Assembly: GCA_036726225.1 (NCBI GenBank)
Contig: DAIMCS010000002.1
Coordinates: 3,994-67,993, forward strand
Length of the DNA: 64,000 bases
Source: Patescibacteria group bacterium
GTDB lineage: Bacteria; Patescibacteriota; Doudnabacteria; UBA920
Reading direction: 5' to 3'
Shown: one piece after another, positions 1,917 to 12,579 of the stretch
Layout: each line of letters opens with the position of its first letter
How positions within the stretch are numbered: position 1 is the stretch's first letter
Notes under the pieces: model-generated
Databases searched by the model: none
What the model saw: the letters and a program-made list of their open reading frames with translations, nothing else
What the model was told of the DNA's origin: nothing
Translations under genes and position numbers: made by a program

Positions 1917-2600
1917 TTAAATGATTTCTTCTCTTTCAATTTTTTTAAATTGCCCCAAAGGTAAACTTTCGGGCAATTTTAATTTGTTTATGCGTATTCG
2001 CTTAAGGGCGGTTACGGTAAGGCCGACAGCGGCGAGCATCCTTCTTATTTGCCTTTTTTTACCCTCGTGAATAGTAATTCGGAGTTTGCCGTCCCGCTGT
2101 TTCACCTGCGCAGGGTAAGTGGTGCCGCTGGAAATTTCCACGCCGGTCCTTAAATTTTCCATTTGGCTTTCATTGGGCTCTTCCTGGGTTTGGATTTCAT
2201 ATTCTTTTTCGTGCTCAAATTTTGGGTGCGCAAGCGCCTGCGTAAGCTCGCCGTCATTGGTTAAAATAAGCAAGCCTTCGGTGTCAAAATCAAGCCTGCC
2301 TACATTCCAAACTTTTTCTCGTAAATTTTCAGGCAGCAAATCGAAAACTGTTCTCCTTCTTGTGGGGTCGCTTTTGCTGACCACGTAGCCTTGCGGCTTA
2401 TTCATTGCAATATAAATTTTTTCATCTTGAGGTTTAACAATTTTTCCGTAGACTTTTACCACGTCATTTTCCGGGTCAACTTTGTCGCCCAGCTTTGCTT
2501 TTTTGCCATTAATAAACACCTGGCCGGATTTTATGAATTCTTCGGCCTTCCTGCGGCTGGCAACGCCGGCACTGGATATGAATTTCTGGACTCTTTCCAT
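1917..2600 (-). CDS. Pseudouridine synthase, RsuA/RluB family (S4 domain plus catalytic domain)
   Basis: N-terminal S4 RNA-binding motif (VQKFISSAGVASRRKAEEFIKSGQVFINGKK) and a PUS catalytic core (GRLDFDTEGLLILTNDGEL). 227 aa is typical of RsuA. Confidence 0.8.
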   Translation of the reverse strand: MERVQKFISSAGVASRRKAEEFIKSGQVFINGKKAKLGDKVDPENDVVKVYGKIVKPQDEKIYIAMNKPQGYVVSKSDPTRRRTVFDLLPENLREKVWNVGRLDFDTEGLLILTNDGELTQALAHPKFEHEKEYEIQTQEEPNESQMENLRTGVEISSGTTYPAQVKQRDGKLRITIHEGKKRQIRRMLAAVGLTVTALKRIRINKLKLPESLPLGQFKKIEREEII

Positions 2601-2741
2601 AGAATTAGATCCCTCGTCCCGATTTCATCGGGACTCGGGACGACAGCTAAAAATAAATAATTATTGTTTGTCGTTTTTTAAACCCGTTCTTGCATATCTA
2701 ATATCATATATTATTTGGCCATTTTGTGCTATAATAAGGGT

Positions 2742-3278
2742 ATGTTTAACAAGAAAAATCTTCCGCTGGCCATTGCGCTGGCAATCCCGCTGTTAATGAT
2801 AGCCTTAGTCGCGGCGTTTATTTATTTGCCGGGAATTGGCAAAAAGCCGCAGTACAATTTTTTGTATATAACAGGCAATACTTACTTATATACTTACAAT
2901 AAGGGACAGTATTTTGTAAGCGGGGACAAACTAGTCCATAACCCGGCGCCGGTCCAAAATGGGTTGCAAAGCTCTGTGTCTTCCACAATTAGGGCAGAGG
3001 ACCAGCAGTCACATTTTTATATTTACAATGTCGCCCAAAATACTGCAACCGAGCTGACTTTTGAGCAAACCCAAAGTTACAGGCTTGACCCGGGCAATAC
3101 TTCGCCCGACGGTTATAGGGTTGAGCGGGGCAGTTCCGGCGGCGGTATATTTTTTGGCGGCTCCTACGATTACAACAGCTGGTATATAAAAGGGCACAAC
3201 CGAAGCTGGAGACTTAATTTGAAATTAACCGGCCAGGATTATTACAATATGCAGTTTTTGGGTTGGGTAATAAATTAA
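2742..3278 (+). CDS. Hypothetical membrane-anchored/secreted protein
   Basis: Internal ATG at 2742 follows an aaggg SD. N-terminal TM (LPLAIALAIPLLMIALVAAFIYL). No recognisable domain. Confidence 0.4.
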   Translation: MFNKKNLPLAIALAIPLLMIALVAAFIYLPGIGKKPQYNFLYITGNTYLYTYNKGQYFVSGDKLVHNPAPVQNGLQSSVSSTIRAEDQQSHFYIYNVAQNTATELTFEQTQSYRLDPGNTSPDGYRVERGSSGGGIFFGGSYDYNSWYIKGHNRSWRLNLKLTGQDYYNMQFLGWVIN

Positions 3279-6634: not shown

Positions 6635-7450
6635 ATGATTTTAGTTGTATCTTCTCCAAATACTTACGCCTCAAAGCGGCTTATGGCGGAGTCAAAAAAA
6701 CTCTCTATCCCCTTAAAAATTGTCCCTGCCAATGAGCTCTCGACTGTAAATTTAGCGCCTTTTAAGGTTTTATATATTAGAAACCCGTTTGTAAATAAAA
6801 GCCCCGAGTTTTTACCGCAAGTAATTGCTTTGGCAAAAAAGTTTAAACGGTCCGGTAAAAAAGTTGTGGATGACGTCGTGGCAAATGGAGATTTAGCTTT
6901 GGGCAAATGGGACAACTACAAACGCTTAAAATTAAGCGGCATCCCTATCCCAAAAACCGAGCTTTTGAGCGACTACCCACTACCTACTACGCACTACCCA
7001 CTAATCCTCAAATGGATTTACGGCTTTAAAGCCCGTGAAGTTTTTTTTGTGGCAAATGAACTTCGGCTCAAAGAAATTTTTAGCAAATTTCCAAAAAATG
7101 AATTGTTAATTCAAGAGTTTATCCCTGCTAAATACGAGTACAAAATTATTACCGTGGGTTATAAAGCTTTGCCTGTGGCAACCAAATTTAAAATTAAAGA
7201 TTTAGGCTTTAAGATAGATTTTAGTTCAGCAAGTAGCGTGCCTATTCGTGGGCTTCCCAGTGAGTTGATTGAGATGGCTGAAACCGCGGCTAAAGTTTTA
7301 GGCCGGCAGCTTTCTAAGGTTGATATTTTAGAGAGCCACGGTAAGTTTTATGTTTTGGAGGTTAACCGCTGCCCGGGGCTTAAATCTTTTGAAAGAATAA
7401 CCAAACATAACGTTGTTAAAGCCTTTTTGGACTATTTATATTCCCTTTAA
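6635..7450 (+). CDS. ATP-grasp domain protein (RimK/alpha-L-glutamate-ligase-like)
   Basis: C-terminal ATP-grasp signature (KIITVGYKALPVATKFKI...SKVDILESHGKFYVLEVNRCPGLKSF). Start placed at internal ATG 6635 (MILVVSS...); the track ORF extends upstream from 6437. Confidence 0.55.
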   Translation: MILVVSSPNTYASKRLMAESKKLSIPLKIVPANELSTVNLAPFKVLYIRNPFVNKSPEFLPQVIALAKKFKRSGKKVVDDVVANGDLALGKWDNYKRLKLSGIPIPKTELLSDYPLPTTHYPLILKWIYGFKAREVFFVANELRLKEIFSKFPKNELLIQEFIPAKYEYKIITVGYKALPVATKFKIKDLGFKIDFSSASSVPIRGLPSELIEMAETAAKVLGRQLSKVDILESHGKFYVLEVNRCPGLKSFERITKHNVVKAFLDYLYSL

Positions 7451-7636
7451 CAATGAATTTTAAACTTGGATCACAAATAATCTTAGCGTAAGTTGAGCAT
7501 AAGGGCAGTAATGCCCGGGATTTACAAATATATTCATTTAAGCTATAATTAAGGCACTAATTTTAACCCACGGATGAATCTGTAATGCGGTTTTTGAACT
7601 TGTGCCGCAATTCATTTCGTGCTGAAAGGCATTGTT

Positions 7637-7909
7637 ATGCTAAGCCCAAAAGAGAAGAATAATTTAATTAAAAAATTCCAGACGCACAAAGACGACACCG
7701 GCAGCCCGGAAGTGCAAATTGCCATTCTCACCAAAGAGATTGAGCAGGTTAGTGAGCACTTAAAAATCCACCGCAAAGACAACCATTCCCGCAGGGGTTT
7801 GCTTAAAATGGTAGGCAACCGCAGAAGGCTTTTAAGGTTCCTAAAAAACGAAGACCAGAAACGCCATGACAAAATTGCGGAGAAATTAAAACTGAAAGTT
7901 TCAGAGTAA
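7637..7909 (+). CDS. rpsO: 30S ribosomal protein S15
   Basis: [70 protein letters not shown] is canonical S15. Start at internal ATG 7637. Confidence 0.9.
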
Positions 7910-8023: not shown

Positions 8024-8103
8024 GGAAAAGTGAGGCAGCGATCCGCCGAAGGCGGAGAGTGTTGGAGAGGAAAACCCTCTCCCCCTTGGGTTGTCCTCTC
8101 CAA
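8024..8103. repeat. ~75-bp two-hairpin repeat element, copy 2
   Basis: Near-identical to 1835..1909. Sits after additional rpsO-downstream hairpins at 7945..8010. Confidence 0.7.
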
Positions 8104-8113
8104 AATTACCCTT

Positions 8114-8509
8114 ATGGACAGTATAGATTTTCAGGTATTTGATAGGGAGTGGACACGCCTGGGCAGAGAAATTTGCCAGGCGGTTTACACAAACCCCAAA
8201 GTCCAAAAAATTAAAACCGCGTTAATAAAAAACCGTACTTTAAACACCGAAGAGCACAGCGAGTTTATTAATATTTGCAACGAAACCAAGTATAGGCTAA
8301 TTTACGAAAAATATGGCGACGAAAAGAGCCAGGGTTACAAAGATTTTAGTAAAAGGTGGCAGGCGTGGTTTCAACAAAAAGGCGTGCAGAGCCAGCAGGA
8401 ACGCAAGCAACGCAGCAGCGTAGACCATATACTCTTTGGCAGTACACCCGAACCCAACACTTTCCTCCTGCATTTTGAAGAAGAAATGCTTGGAAGTATG
8501 AAACCATAA
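8114..8509 (+). CDS. Hypothetical protein
   Basis: Start moved to ATG 8114 (MDSIDFQ...) because the upstream part of the track ORF overlaps the repeat element. Terminator follows. Confidence 0.4.
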   Translation: MDSIDFQVFDREWTRLGREICQAVYTNPKVQKIKTALIKNRTLNTEEHSEFINICNETKYRLIYEKYGDEKSQGYKDFSKRWQAWFQQKGVQSQQERKQRSSVDHILFGSTPEPNTFLLHFEEEMLGSMKP

Positions 8510-8513
8510 ATTA

Positions 8514-8542
8514 AAAATCCTCCCGAAAGGGAGGATTTTTTT
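8514..8542 (+). terminator. Rho-independent terminator
   Basis: aaaatcctcccgaaagggaggatttttt. Confidence 0.7.
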
Positions 8543-8604
8543 ATGACATGGGTCATGTCACCATTGTTTTGACCAAATTTAGAGAACTTATGTTTCAATG
8601 TAAA

Positions 8605-8628
8605 CTGTCAAATGTCAAGACTTGACCC
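8605..8628 (+). repeat. REP-like palindrome (copy A)
   Basis: ctgtcaaatgtcaagacttgaccc. The core gtcaag-a-cttgac is self-complementary. Same motif at 9377..9425, 9511..9530 (inverted) and 10579..10626. Confidence 0.7.
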
Positions 8629-8880
8629 CCTTTGTTTCTCGGTAAGGCCGTTGACAATAAAACAAAACAGCGGATAGAGCGTGTAAGAACACCTTTCCTA
8701 AACCTCTGCAGGGGCATGGAAGAAAAACCGTGAACTAATCCGCAAGAGCTTACTTACAACAATCTCTTCTTCCACTGCTAATATCTCATCGTCGCTTAAA
8801 CCAGTCTCAAAAGCAACACCAAAATTTTTAAGCTGTGAGTTTACAGATTCTAAATTCATTTTTCGTCTTCTTTTACATAC

Positions 8881-9294
8881 CTAACCATCATTAGGTTTTT
8901 CCTTTTCGAATTTTTCTTGATCTGATTGGTACTTTCCAATTTGCCTGGCGTAACCTTCCGATATATCAAACATGGGGATCTGATGATATTCCCAATGATG
9001 GGGGCCGAAGTAATGAACCCACTCTTTATCTAATTTTTTTATTATCTCTGCATTATTCATATCCCAATACCGTAAAAAAGAGCCGGATTCATTATTAAGA
9101 TTACCCACTCTTATTTTATTTTCTGCTAAAAGCTCTTCAATAGCTTTAAGCATGTACTGCTTTTCTAATTCCTTATCATCTCCAAGACCAGGTATTTCGG
9201 ATTCTAAAATTCCTATATAACCTATATCTGTATAGTCATCAGAAATCTGTGTTAATAAAATATCTTTTATCTTTTTTAATGTCTGGTTGTCCAT
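8881..9294 (-). CDS. Hypothetical acidic protein lying between REP-like copies
   Basis: Complete ORF with no recognisable domain. Flanked by the 8605 and 9377 palindrome copies. Confidence 0.35.
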   Translation of the reverse strand: MDNQTLKKIKDILLTQISDDYTDIGYIGILESEIPGLGDDKELEKQYMLKAIEELLAENKIRVGNLNNESGSFLRYWDMNNAEIIKKLDKEWVHYFGPHHWEYHQIPMFDISEGYARQIGKYQSDQEKFEKEKPNDG

Positions 9295-9376
9295 TATTTT
9301 GTAGCTCCTTCTGCTACATATTTTAATGTTTGTACTGTTTGACCTTGATTATTCATCACTTGGATTGTTGCTTGCG

Positions 9377-10626
9377 AGAAACTTTTTTATTTACCATTGT
9401 GTCAAATGTCAAGACTTGACCCTGTGTTTCCTCCCTGATCTACTCATTCCGAATTGCTGAGTTAGATTCTGCAACTTTTCCATAGCTGTAGGCCTGACTA
9501 TCAGAACAAGGGGTCAAGTCTTGACATTTTACATTTTGCATAACCCATCAACCTTCTCAATTAAACGTTTAATTGCCTTATCTTTTTCTGCCTGCACGCA
9601 CAGCCTTTTAACCGTTTGCGATATAGAAGAATAATGCAAACCATTAAACTGTTCGGCTATTTGTTTTAGGCTAAGGTAAGTATAATGCTTTAAAGCGTAA
9701 ATGATAAGCTTCTTTTCGAGCTTGCGCTCTAGCTTGAGCCTGGTAATTACGGCTGTTATCCCTTCCAGAGTTTTAGTCCTTTGGACAAGTTTTAGGCTAG
9801 GAATCTCAGGATCTGTTTTATTACCTAAATAATCTTCTTGAATTTTAGAGACAAAGTCGCTATTTCCAAGAATTATACCTTTGTAAGCTTCTTTTTCAGG
9901 CCTAAAGTCTTGTTCTTCAGACTCAAACATAAATTCTTTAAATGCTTTAATGGCTTTTCTCTTGGATTTATGGAACTGCGAAAGCAAAAAATCAGTTTTT
10001 AAAAATACAGGCATTTCTGCTTTGCCAATATATGCGGGATAGCTGGAAAATTGATATTCTTCCAGCTGTTTTACAATCTTTGCCTTAAGCGGGTTTAAAT
10101 GAATGTATTTAGACAGTTGTAAAGAATAGCTGTCTTGGTCAACTAAAGTGGCTTTATACCTGCCTTGGAATAGAGGCCCTACTCTTTTGCGGCGCTTGTT
10201 GAATTTTAAAGTGTAGATGCCGTCCAACTGCCTCATAATTTTAGACAGCTGGCCGTTGGGAGTTTCAATATATAGGTGGTAATGGTTAGACATTAGGCAG
10301 TAACAATGAACCCAAAGGCCATACTTTTCGTGCAAATGTTTCAGCAGAAAAAAGAAATATTCTCTATCCTTAGAATCCCTAAATATTTCTCTTCGTTCAA
10401 GGCCACGATTGATTACGTGGTAAAACGCACCTGGATATTCAATTCTAAGAGGTCTGGCCATGCTAATTTACCGTTATTTGGCCAGTTTAATTTAATTAAG
10501 ATTGTTGTCAATGGATAACTTAAAAATACAAGCCTAATCTATTGTTTTAACTTAAATGTTTATTCTTACTGACAGTAAGAAACTTTTTTATTTACCATTG
10601 TGTCAAATGTCAAGACTTGACCCTGT
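9377..10626 (-). mobile_element. IS200/IS605-like or REPtron-type unit: HUH Y1 transposase flanked by ~49-bp direct repeats carrying REP-like hairpins
   Basis: Near-identical 49-bp segments (gaaactttttatttaccattgtgtcaaatgtcaagacttgaccctgt) at 9377..9425 and 10579..10626 bracket the transposase gene. An inverted copy of the hairpin lies at 9511..9530. Confidence 0.65.
9529..10461 (-). CDS. Y1 HUH transposase (IS200 TnpA / REP-associated tyrosine transposase) with a C-terminal DnaA-domain-IV-like HTH
   Basis: YHVINRG...HCYCLMSNHYHLYIETP (HuH motif) and a downstream catalytic-Tyr region. The C-terminal tail SLKQIAEQFNGLHYSSISQTVKRL resembles the DnaA C-terminal HTH. Confidence 0.8.
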   Translation of the reverse strand: MARPLRIEYPGAFYHVINRGLERREIFRDSKDREYFFFLLKHLHEKYGLWVHCYCLMSNHYHLYIETPNGQLSKIMRQLDGIYTLKFNKRRKRVGPLFQGRYKATLVDQDSYSLQLSKYIHLNPLKAKIVKQLEEYQFSSYPAYIGKAEMPVFLKTDFLLSQFHKSKRKAIKAFKEFMFESEEQDFRPEKEAYKGIILGNSDFVSKIQEDYLGNKTDPEIPSLKLVQRTKTLEGITAVITRLKLERKLEKKLIIYALKHYTYLSLKQIAEQFNGLHYSSISQTVKRLCVQAEKDKAIKRLIEKVDGLCKM

Positions 10627-10739
10627 CTGTCCCTATTCCAGTTTGATTAATTCCTTGATCGGCATTTATTAAAATTAATCTATAATATTTTATTTTGTTG
10701 CTAAACAAACAAGCTCTTTTTAGGTATTACCTACAAAAT

Positions 10740-11213
10740 TTATTTATTAGACTTATAGGAACTGGGTACCGAAGCTTCTTCGAAGTCAAATTTGTCTTTA
10801 TTCTTTTTTACTTCTTCTGCCAACAAATTTCCAATCATATTTGGGTCTACTTCTGATGGCACATCAATGGTTACAAAATTTTCAACTACACCGCTAGTTT
10901 CAGTACCGCAGCCAAGAGCATTAATTCTTTTTATTACTGAATTTGTATAATCACCTTTTTCATCCTCAAACACTTTAAACCTAAATGTACTATGGCCGCT
11001 AAACTTTATAGTTTTATCGTACATTAATAAACCATCAGGTGCAGGGGTCGCACTTACTATATCACCCCAACTAACACCAAAGACTCCGAAAGGAATATTT
11101 CTAATTTCATACTCATTTTCGGAGAGTTTTTCTGCAAACATTGTTTCTGTATGAGACCCTAAAAGCGAATCTTCTACATGAAAACCTATTTTTACCAAAT
11201 TATCATTGTTCAT
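10740..11213 (-). CDS. Putative immunity protein for the adjacent orphan Rhs-CT (HNH-like) cassette
   Basis: Small ORF immediately downstream of, and co-directional with, the toxin cassette 11245..12579. No known domain; assigned from position only. Confidence 0.4.
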   Translation of the reverse strand: MNNDNLVKIGFHVEDSLLGSHTETMFAEKLSENEYEIRNIPFGVFGVSWGDIVSATPAPDGLLMYDKTIKFSGHSTFRFKVFEDEKGDYTNSVIKRINALGCGTETSGVVENFVTIDVPSEVDPNMIGNLLAEEVKKNKDKFDFEEASVPSSYKSNK

Positions 11214-11244: not shown

Positions 11245-12579
11245 TTATGGCCAAGATGAAAACGGGTTGATATATTTATTTAGTGGGTTATTTGGGCTGT
11301 TTTTAAACTGCTCCTCAGACTGGGCACCCTTCTTTAAATTACAATCCCTACACTTCACGGAATCATTTTGAGGTGAGTTGTCTCCCCCCGCTTTACGCGA
11401 AGTCTTATGATCGTGATTCTTTTCATCCGGTGAAGGAGATTTCCCTTTTTCTGGCTTTCCGGGCTCTGTGACTTCTTTACCACAGTTGTCACATTTCAAC
11501 TTTCCATCATTTCTAGCTCTATTTTCTTCTTCTGTCTTTTCCTTGGTCTTATTTGAAAACTTACCTCCCGGCAAATATTTTTCTAAAGCAATTCCAGTAG
11601 AAGTCTGTGGCGTGGACATTAATGAAGCTGGTGTACTTTGATTTCCGATTGAATCAGGACCAGCTAAAGTCCATCTAATACCATAATACGCCCCAACTGT
11701 GCCGCCAACAACTATGGTTGCTCCCCCTAATACATATGCACCGACAATTACTTCACCACCGAGAGCAGCGCCTCCTCCACCAAATACCAATGTGCCTGCT
11801 GCAGCGTTTTCTCCAGTCGGATCAGTATTCACAATTGGGTTGTTTCTAGCATAACTATAACTATTCCACTGCTGAGGGTCTTGAAGATACTCATCTGGAG
11901 TTTCCCAGAACATAGGATCCTGACTTATAAACTTCGCATTTGTGCCATTGAAATAACGGCTATTCATGTAGGTCAAAGAACTGGTTGGGTCATACTCGTG
12001 TCCGCTAATACCTTTTCTTTGTTCGTTGAATCCAGTTTGTTCATCTATCCTAAAAGTACCGTAGGGATATGTATCGACAATTTGGACCACGGCGCCAGCA
12101 TCTGAGGTCGAGACATTTGCTCCACCGAGATGATCAACATGCACGTAACTTACTGTGGTAGAAGTACCCGTTCCAACTACAGTAGCAATAAGTGTGCCGT
12201 CTGGTAAGAATATATGTTTAGTTGGAACGCTTCCGGTTATATTATATTCCTTCGTTGGATAATAAGTAGTAACTGAGGATGTGGTAGCGACTGTCATCTT
12301 CACACGCTGACCCCAGGGATCATAGCTAAAAGTACTGGTGGCCGTCGTTGAAGTAGCCTGAGTCAGTCTATTGTTGTAATCCCAAGTGTAAGATACAGCT
12401 GGGGTACTGGTTCCTATTCTTTGGGTGAGTAGGTTTCCATTGTTATCATATGTATAAGCATAGGCGCTACCCGCTGTAGTGGTCGCTACAGCATGGGGAT
12501 TCAAATAAGCAGGGGTATTTGTAGCATAGGTATACGTAGTGGTAGTGGACAAGCCGACATCTACTCCAGATTTTAGCAA
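11245..12579 (-). CDS. Orphan Rhs C-terminal cassette (terminal YD repeats + Rhs core end + variable toxin tip with an HNH-like Cys/His motif)
   Basis: Shares TTTYTYATNTPAYLNPHAVATT...RYFNGTNAKFISQDP...NNPIVNTDPTG with the C-terminal part of the 2654-aa Rhs. The divergent tip contains CDNCGK...NHDH...CRDCN. Confidence 0.75.
   Translation of the reverse strand: MLKSGVDVGLSTTTTYTYATNTPAYLNPHAVATTTAGSAYAYTYDNNGNLLTQRIGTSTPAVSYTWDYNNRLTQATSTTATSTFSYDPWGQRVKMTVATTSSVTTYYPTKEYNITGSVPTKHIFLPDGTLIATVVGTGTSTTVSYVHVDHLGGANVSTSDAGAVVQIVDTYPYGTFRIDEQTGFNEQRKGISGHEYDPTSSLTYMNSRYFNGTNAKFISQDPMFWETPDEYLQDPQQWNSYSYARNNPIVNTDPTGENAAAGTLVFGGGGAALGGEVIVGAYVLGGATIVVGGTVGAYYGIRWTLAGPDSIGNQSTPASLMSTPQTSTGIALEKYLPGGKFSNKTKEKTEEENRARNDGKLKCDNCGKEVTEPGKPEKGKSPSPDEKNHDHKTSRKAGGDNSPQNDSVKCRDCNLKKGAQSEEQFKNSPNNPLNKYINPFSSWP

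Follow-up and report, generated by a model that had tools for sequence, protein, structure and literature searches.

Locus and repeats

The DNA analyzed here, referred to below as the window, is a 64,000-nucleotide stretch from a Patescibacteria group bacterium of the Doudnabacteria (GenBank assembly GCA_036726225.1, contig DAIMCS010000002.1, positions 3,994 to 67,993 of the forward strand). Four copies of a motif of 23 to 24 nucleotides (nt), TGTCAAATGTCAAGACTTGACCC(C), lie within 2 kb of this stretch: three are exact, at 8606-8628(+), 9400-9422(+), and 10601-10623(+), and the fourth, at 9511-9533(-), has one mismatch. The number expected by chance is zero (0 in 100 shuffles), and no further copy was found elsewhere in the 64-kb window with as many as seven mismatches allowed. 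The copies at 9511 and 10601 are inverted relative to each other and enclose an open reading frame (ORF) of 310 amino acids (aa) for a Y1/HUH transposase with a C-terminal helix-turn-helix (HTH) domain. Repeats, promoter region, and ORF together form a unit that, as argued below, is probably a TIRtron: an insertion sequence (IS)-like unit in which a transposase gene of the type called TIRYT is held between two terminal inverted repeats (TIRs). The TIR on the gene-upstream side is called left and the opposite one right, and the coordinates of all features are collected in Table 1.

The two arms of the unit, 9511-9533 and 10601-10623, are 96% complementary, and its outer ends read GGGG...CCCC. 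A change of C4 to A in the right TIR creates the TAA stop codon of the transposase gene. GC content is 35.9% in the unit, compared with 42.8% in the window. A first-pass annotation of the region, made from the letters alone, had listed four palindrome copies, and four there are, although two of the positions it gave, 9377 and 10579, are the starts of direct copies and not of palindromes. Those direct copies are likewise real, but 55 nt rather than 49 nt long (9377-9431 and 10578-10632, 96% identical), and they do not define the element. The pair that brackets the gene is the inverted one, 9510-9533 with 10601-10624, and 9377-9431 is a duplicated fragment of the left end.

Ten contigs of this population were compared and are 100% identical over 8400-10900. 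The exact 310-aa protein occurs on 21 contigs from several samples, with the same gene neighborhood at every place shown. The unit is single-copy in the visible part of the genome and invariant in the ten contigs compared.

The internal hairpin of the motif is weak (5 bp, -2.5 kcal/mol, z -1.65), and it is lost in a TIR variant, TGTGAAATGTTAAGACTTGACCCC, that flanks an intact homologue of the transposase gene at both ends (locus L148). Compensatory changes were sought among the TIR variants and none were seen. We considered the motif as a hairpin of the repetitive extragenic palindromic (REP) kind, and neither folding nor covariation among variants gave that reading support; a GTAG or CGTC head is also missing from the motif. 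Rather than REP hairpins, the repeats are terminal inverted repeats of 24 bp. An Rfam search of the window returned two tRNAs only, and the motif is therefore not a known RNA. The TIR was also considered as a source of promoters, as it contains TTGACA twice; the scan placed the best promoter within the element at 10511-10484, in the interval from the left TIR to the ATG, and none in the TIR.

The transposase

The 310-aa ORF contains the strings YHVINRG and CLMSNHYHLYI and matches Pfam family Y1_Tnp (3e-14). Its best match in NCBIfam is the RAYT equivalog REP_Tyr_transpos, with 73.9 bits, below the cutoff of 80, and transpos_IS200 scores 19.4 bits, far below its cutoff of 55. The Pfam match of the single sequence to Bac_DnaA_C, over aa 251-286, is weak (19.8 bits against a cutoff of 31.5). 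A search of the PDB with the single sequence found nothing relevant; structures of DnaA and TnpA_REP were reached by a family profile only. This profile, taken from an alignment of 46 homologues, matches DnaA structure 1L8Q over domain IV (E 1.6e-4) and 2HCB likewise, DnaA structure 8BTG (E 6.5e-4), and the E. coli TnpA_REP structure 4ER8 (E 6e-4). In the same alignment H15, H60-Y61-H62, Y119, N123, and R286 are invariant.

An AlphaFold2 (AF2) model of the protein has a pLDDT of 87.5 and is helical over residues 232-309. TnpA_REP, 4ER8, is the top Foldseek match of the model (E 3.7e-7, TM 0.73 normalized to the target), and the IS200, ISDra2, and IS608 transposases rank after it as structural matches, with E about 1e-4. 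In the 4ER8 alignment, H60/H62, Y119, and N123 fall on H59/H61, Y115, and N119 of E. coli TnpA_REP, which are the active-site residues of that enzyme (Messing et al. 2012, PMC3479197). TnpA_REP residue H123 corresponds to an Ala (A127) that is invariant here, and a Ser motif, S139-S140, follows the catalytic Tyr. Because active-site residues, profile matches, and structural matches agree, the protein is apparently an intact RAYT-like Y1 nuclease with an added DnaA-domain-IV-like HTH. The first-pass annotation had named it a RAYT/IS200-like Y1 HUH transposase with an extra HTH resembling DnaA domain IV; a Y1/HUH enzyme of the RAYT lineage is borne out, including the presence of the catalytic Tyr on alignment, and the HTH is recovered at profile level.

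The TIR in other organisms

A 19-mer from the motif was searched for exact matches in three collections. Matches were found in 74 stretches of metagenome contigs, in 50 stretches of species-representative genomes, and in 1 stretch of viral contigs, this single match being the outcome of a check for carriage by phages. Among the stretches of DNA fetched from other organisms, about 140 contain the motif. The genomes that bear it are metagenome-assembled genomes (MAGs) labelled Doudnabacteria, Saccharibacteria, Omnitrophota, Planctomycetia, and Alpha-, Gamma-, and Deltaproteobacteria, together with one Legionella, and the Doudnabacteria genomes have one or two exact copies each. In MAGs of Patescibacteria, Omnitrophota, Planctomycetia, and the three proteobacterial classes the TIR is near-identical, in flanks that are mutually unrelated and range from AT-rich to GC-rich. 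Conservation forms a sharp block of 24 nt, TGTCAAATGTCAAGACTTGACCCC, in which positions 1-4 and 24 are conserved though they lie outside the search pattern. The outer 12 nt, AGACTTGACCCC, are nearly invariant, and the inner half is variable. The TIR is conserved much more strongly than neutral divergence could explain.

In more than 20 loci of other organisms the motif forms a gene-bearing unit of about 1000-1115 bp, made of a (-) copy, a Y1 gene, and a (+) copy. The ORFs of homologues likewise end inside the downstream TIR (...MSNVKT*). Most of these loci had been found via the motif itself and, because the first sample was chosen in this way, the test was repeated from the protein side. Nine homologues, 43-65% identical to the window's protein, were reached by exact protein look-up; an upstream TIR is present in nine of nine, and a downstream TIR clearly in eight. 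The TIRs of these nine have 0-7 mismatches, a number that does not track divergence of the protein. P0055, a 49% identical protein, has two perfect TIRs, and the protein at locus L030 is only 30% identical, yet its TIRs have 0-1 mismatches.

Locus L091 contains two such units (2031-3040 and 6663-7682), 4.6 kb apart and 97.2% identical, one of them with a 10-nt deletion and a frameshift near its 3' end. Similarity between the copies extends past the TIRs by only 2 nt on one side and 11 nt on the other, which argues that the gene plus its TIRs is the duplicated unit itself. The left flank is also alike for some 8-11 nt beyond the left TIR, both on the gene-upstream side in L091 and in the 55-nt copies of the window.

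The motif also occurs in doublets that have a (-) copy and a (+) copy but no gene, 62-150 bp long and often with further inner symmetry, which resemble miniature inverted-repeat transposable elements (MITEs) or REPINs. They occupy at least 12 sites in one Alphaproteobacteria MAG and several sites in one complete Gammaproteobacteria chromosome, and an identical doublet was found in both orientations with unrelated flanks. Uniqueness of the palindrome to this locus, which the first-pass annotation had named as a ground for rejecting its reading, does not hold when other organisms' DNA is counted, although over the 64 kb seen of this genome the motif occurs at this locus only. Target-site duplications were sought around 55 inverted motif pairs, comprising gene-bearing units and doublets, and apart from one genome with a possible TA none was found. 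In other phyla, the genes that lie between solo TIRs of the same orientation are assorted accessory genes and not consistently cassettes.

Direct repeats at the outer TIR boundary

For 32 of 194 distinct instances of the motif, direct repeats of at least 8 nt were found in the 40 nt on the outer side, counted from 'TGACCCC'. On the inner side the same test gave 0 of 194, and random windows gave 2 of 194. Most of the repeated units are 9-27 nt long, and they usually combine 4-11 nt from the end of the TIR with flank, one example being TGACCCC plus 8 nt of flank. Their start points vary, the innermost at motif position 12 and the outermost a few nt past the TIR. Such repeats at the outer boundary fit DNA breakage near that boundary. 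A more detailed scan for flank duplications had an unclean inner control (22 versus 51), since tandem arrays and doublets add to the inner as well as the outer count, and the 194-instance test was relied on instead. Individual examples can be seen at L041 965, L049 5333, L115 6149 and 7130, both ends of L145, and L146 1483. Full tandem arrays of the motif plus about 10 nt are present in L022, L028/L048, and L050.

Neighboring genes and remnants at the locus

Table 1. Features of the locus, in window coordinates
Feature	Position	Strand	Remarks
Solo TIR, perfect 24-mer	8606..8629	+	Frame into the solo TIR gives ...ELMFQCKLSNVKT*
53-aa ORF, between the predicted immunity gene and a solo TIR	8698..8859	-	Called as a gene in source contigs
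Predicted orphan immunity gene, 137 aa	8881..9294	-	From position of homologues behind Rhs toxins
Putative Rhs C-terminal toxin remnant, last 27 codons, ...SQATIQVMNNQGQTVQTLKYVAEGATK*	9294..9376	-	By-eye alignment to toxin C-termini of L143 and L142
Duplicated left-end fragment with solo TIR 9400-9423	9377..9431	+	96% identical to 10578-10632
Probable TIRtron (TIR, promoter region, TIRYT ORF, TIR)	9510..10624	-	1115 bp; inverted repeat
Right TIR, TGTAAAATGTCAAGACTTGACCCC on the minus strand	9510..9533	-	Overlaps stop codon of the TIRYT gene
TIRYT gene, 310 aa, Y1/HUH transposase with C-terminal HTH	9529..10461	-	Pfam, NCBIfam, AF2 model
DnaA-domain-IV-like HTH domain, about aa 230-310	9532..9774	-	R286 invariant
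HUH/Y1 catalytic domain, about aa 1-145	10027..10461	-	H15, H60-Y61-H62, Y119, N123
Sigma-70-like promoter match, TTGACA-16-TAAACT	10484..10511	-	10/12; consensus match only; best in scan
55-nt left-end block (8 nt outer flank, 24-nt TIR, 23 nt inner)	10578..10632	+	Source copy
Left TIR TGTCAAATGTCAAGACTTGACCCT, gene-upstream side	10601..10624	+	Outer end at 10624

Upstream of the TIRYT gene, on the same strand, are the last Rhs orphan of an array (RHS_repeat plus HNH, 11245-12579) and its DUF4265 partner (10740-11213). The transposase gene directly follows this pair, in agreement with its first-pass placement after the last orphan toxin cassette. The array extends beyond 18000 and comprises a long Rhs gene (2654 aa in source contigs), then several orphan C-terminal toxin cassettes with small immunity ORFs. 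Calls of the orphan ORFs differ among contigs of the same population (350, 435, or 444 aa); the 2.5 kb around the element are identical.

Downstream of the unit, the 137-aa ORF is present as first reported, and the function that had been left blank can be proposed. Only four homologues are known. Two of them (P0123 and P0124) lie directly behind ORFs for Rhs C-terminal toxins, with stop and start codons overlapping or 1 nt apart, and in the core region these toxin ORFs share 51-68% identity with the Rhs orphans of the window. Because these two homologues directly follow Rhs C-terminal toxin ORFs, the 137-aa ORF is predicted to be the orphan Rhs immunity gene of a truncated toxin. The putative remnant of that toxin begins exactly at 9376, the inner edge of the 55-nt fragment; it is in frame, and its stop overlaps the ATG of the next gene (TAATG, the usual arrangement). 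The tblastn match for the remnant is weak (E 0.67, 40% over 25 aa), and the assignment is made from the by-eye alignment of C-termini. The 137-aa ORF was considered as cargo of the element and rejected, no homologue being present in any other TIR locus. Relatives of this gene adjoin serine recombinases (L142 1613-4593) or ThsB_TIR and SLATT genes (L143 1771-2821), contexts that are mobile or defensive. The 53-aa ORF, for which a family search found no match, may be a truncated immunity gene.

The frame that enters the solo TIR at 8606 ends ...QCKLSNVKT*. As this resembles the C-termini of TIRYTs, this solo TIR was probably left by the right end of an older copy of the element; similarity of the inner flank is modest. 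Between this solo TIR and a 159-aa ORF (8030-8509, +), a perfect hairpin with a 12-bp stem, AAAAATCCTCCC-GAAA-GGGAGGATTTTT, with A and T runs beside it (window 8513-8540), looks like a bidirectional terminator.

The left-end fragment lies 86 nt beyond the right TIR, in direct orientation to the original left end. Locus L150 has the same geometry with a longer, pseudogenized tandem second copy, the left-end copies of L043 contain N-terminal codons as well, and in L016 one left-end sequence recurs at the two ends of the contig. In the reading we favor, the fragment in the window is what remains of a tandem second copy, and a deletion that started inside it took most of the orphan toxin gene. Both extra motifs are debris, that is, end fragments, of earlier events at the same site. 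What had appeared to be a cluster of palindromes is thereby explained as one intact element plus two end fragments, and the 137-aa ORF as the predicted orphan Rhs immunity gene, left behind when a rearrangement that ends inside an element fragment removed its toxin. The solo TIR at 9400 and the right TIR are turned toward each other with their outer (CCCC) ends. These facing TIRs can pair to a 24-bp stem in single-stranded DNA or RNA (window 9400-9533, -28.8 kcal/mol, z -6.6), which sits between the stop codon of the transposase gene and the predicted immunity gene.

Genomic context was compared over ten loci of patescibacterial type: the window, eight patescibacterial loci reached from the protein, and L090 (Doudnabacteria), from the motif scan. 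The TIRYT gene stands at the distal end of an Rhs/YD array in four of the ten (window, L135, L137, and L148), in identical orientation and with differing downstream genes. At L135 2930-3988, L137 1-3738, and L148 363-4350, the transposase homologues are 54-60% identical and come directly after arrays of Rhs/YD toxin-immunity genes; the upstream TIR of L135 falls within the ORF of the last orphan toxin. In a Deltaproteobacteria MAG a solo TIR lies between Rhs orphans (L100, with the same sequences in L024). The link to Rhs may reflect one old insertion inherited with the array, and survival of insertion sequences in permissive regions. Locus L147 (1739-6026) reads (+)TIR, MNT/HEPN, (+)TIR, MNT/HEPN, (+)TIR, Gp49/HTH, (+)TIR, TIRtron, and an extra (+)TIR. 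This layout looks integron-style, but may be element debris in a toxin-antitoxin (TA) island; the solo TIRs are preceded by decayed 3' codons of a TIRYT gene (..KVDGLCK).

Interpretation and alternatives

We conclude that the segment 9510-10624 is probably a TIRtron, with a TIRYT gene of TnpA-Y1 subclass 2.1.2 between two 24-bp TIRs. In the mechanism this would imply, the HTH would read the TIR as sequence, and the HUH/Y119 center would nick single-stranded DNA at or beside the outer TIR boundary, forming a 5'-phosphotyrosine link. Both TIRs of one strand would probably pair as a panhandle, as proposed for REPINs, and movement would leave no target duplication.

Several points weigh against this conclusion. 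To our knowledge, activity has never been shown for any TIRYT, and what it binds, where it cuts, and on which kind of strand are inferred here. Nothing at the locus points to mobility at present, the ten compared contigs being identical and the neighborhood constant. Perfect TIRs are over-represented among loci found via the motif. Because some 8-11 nt beyond the left TIR are alike between copies, the true left boundary may lie outside the 24-mer. The history of the 55-nt copy, a tandem copy followed by deletion, is a reconstruction, and remnants of Rhs or toxin genes were sought in the flanks 10625-10739 and 9432-9509 and none were found. The TIR head, GGGGTCAA, fits the published GGGGWSAS (the majority type) at seven of eight positions, the last being A instead of S.

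The first-pass annotation had suggested a REPtron or a minimal IS. The minimal IS stands, bracketed by repeats; the REPs do not, given the weak hairpin, the missed RAYT cutoff, and a motif that is not dispersed in the visible genome. In a REPtron the gene would be a canonical RAYT and the flanking palindromes would be REP hairpins, spread through the genome as REPs, bacterial interspersed mosaic elements (BIMEs), and REPINs. We consider this quite unlikely, even though the structure is closest to E. coli TnpA_REP, REP_Tyr_transpos is the best NCBIfam match, the gene is single-copy as RAYTs are, and the motif forms REPIN-like inverted doublets in other genomes. That best match falls short of the equivalog cutoff, the motif is without a GTAG/CGTC head, and its hairpin is not kept in variants. 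The 64 kb hold no copy outside the locus, and the Doudnabacteria genomes hold one or two exact copies each. Moreover, one sequence is common to several phyla, whereas REP families are specific to the individual tnpA_REP (PMC6006769), and beside subclass 2.1 genes no REP-like sequences were found (Quentin 2018). An ordinary IS200/IS605 insertion sequence, in which the left and the right end each have a subterminal hairpin, would account for the Y1/HUH fold, for the structural matches to IS200, ISDra2, and IS608, and for the absence of target duplication around the motif pairs examined. It is very unlikely, however, that the element is of this kind, since the end structure already contradicts it: the element terminates in inverted repeats, where such an insertion sequence has two different hairpins of one orientation. 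The low transpos_IS200 score, a protein twice as long and with an HTH domain, and the lack of tnpB speak against it as well.

The TIRYT might instead be a domesticated recombinase that, with a universal 24-bp site, forms an integron-like recombination platform and adds, truncates, or exchanges Rhs toxin-immunity or TA cassettes, building or remodeling their arrays, or it might be a regulator whose HTH acts on neighboring genes through the motif. A recombinase gene at the array end and solo TIRs that mark cassette junctions, in the window and in L147, would suit such a role. So would the four of ten loci at distal Rhs/YD array ends in the same orientation with different downstream genes, the TIR within an orphan toxin ORF in L135, the TIR fragment fused to a truncated toxin in the window, the four solo TIRs of L147 that alternate with MNT/HEPN and Gp49/HTH TA pairs beside a TIRtron, and the solo TIR between Rhs orphans in the Deltaproteobacteria MAG. 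However, six of the ten loci are not at Rhs arrays, and the four that are could share one ancestral insertion, because identity among the TIRYTs (54-60%) resembles identity of the Rhs cores (46-65%). Insertion sequences commonly accumulate in such permissive regions, contexts of the motif in other phyla are assorted, and the solo TIRs of L147, because they carry decayed TIRYT codons, look like element debris and not like dedicated sites. We regard this role as unlikely.

Relation to known systems

The terms TIRtron and TIRYT were introduced by Di Nocera 2013 (BMC Genomics 14:522, PMC3733652) for elements whose TIRs share a GGGGWSAS head; the TIR families are moderately abundant in some genomes and absent in others (PMC3733652). 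The element described here is like them in having a RAYT-like Y1 gene flanked by long TIRs unrelated to GTAG REPs, and in the occurrence of TIR copies as singles, dimers, and clusters, with two extra solos in the window and dimers and clusters in other genomes. It differs in that only the 8-nt head is reported as shared in PMC3733652, whereas here the full 24 bp is near-identical across phyla; a Candidate Phyla Radiation (CPR) lineage and an Rhs context are outside the survey of Di Nocera 2013. The motif string was found in no paper of the literature searched, the supplements of Di Nocera 2013 contained no matching TIR text, and the searches found the term TIRtron or TIRYT only in Di Nocera 2013 and Quentin 2018 and nothing newer on the class. 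The widely distributed 'Group 1' RAYTs of Bertels et al. 2017 may be the same group. The kind of element is thus already described; the cross-phylum conservation of the TIR, the duplications at its outer boundary, and the Rhs link were not found reported.

Most TIRYTs fall in TnpA-Y1 subclass 2.1 (Quentin 2018, BMC Genomics 19:475, PMC6006769), near the genes of which no REP-like sequences were found, and subclass 2.1.2 has a Bac_DnaA_C-like tail (PMC6006769). The comparison with long RAYT families of the DnaA_C type that was suggested in the first pass leads to this subclass: the long protein, the Bac_DnaA_C-like extension, the lack of REP-like hairpins near the gene, and the Ser motif after the catalytic Tyr all match its description in Quentin 2018. 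The same study suggested that the C-terminal domain possibly does not recognize repeats (PMC6006769). In contrast, as the TIR is conserved so strictly across phyla, we infer that it is read by some part of the protein.

E. coli TnpA_REP, the RAYT of REP, BIME, and REPIN systems (Messing et al. 2012; Bertels & Rainey 2011), is the best structural match, with HUH, Tyr, and Asn residues conserved, and it too is encoded by a single-copy gene with inverted copies of its cognate repeat and, in some genomes, gene-less inverted doublets. It differs in its length of 165 aa, in having no HTH, and in its GTAG-tagged imperfect hairpin, which is specific to the host lineage. The TnpA proteins of IS200/IS605 elements, such as IS608 and ISDra2, share the Y1/HUH chemistry and the lack of target duplication. 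These are dimeric enzymes of 130-155 aa that act on two different subterminal hairpins on one strand, and their elements are without TIRs and the enzymes without an HTH.

By published account, TIRYTs (subclass 2.1) rank second in size among the groups of RAYT-like Y1 proteins. For these proteins, one 24-bp sequence, found from CPR bacteria to Proteobacteria, offers biochemists a single defined candidate substrate. The sharing of this TIR across phyla stands in sharp contrast to the lineage-specific REPs of canonical RAYTs, which suggests that the ends of the element are read by the protein through its HTH, and not as hairpins.

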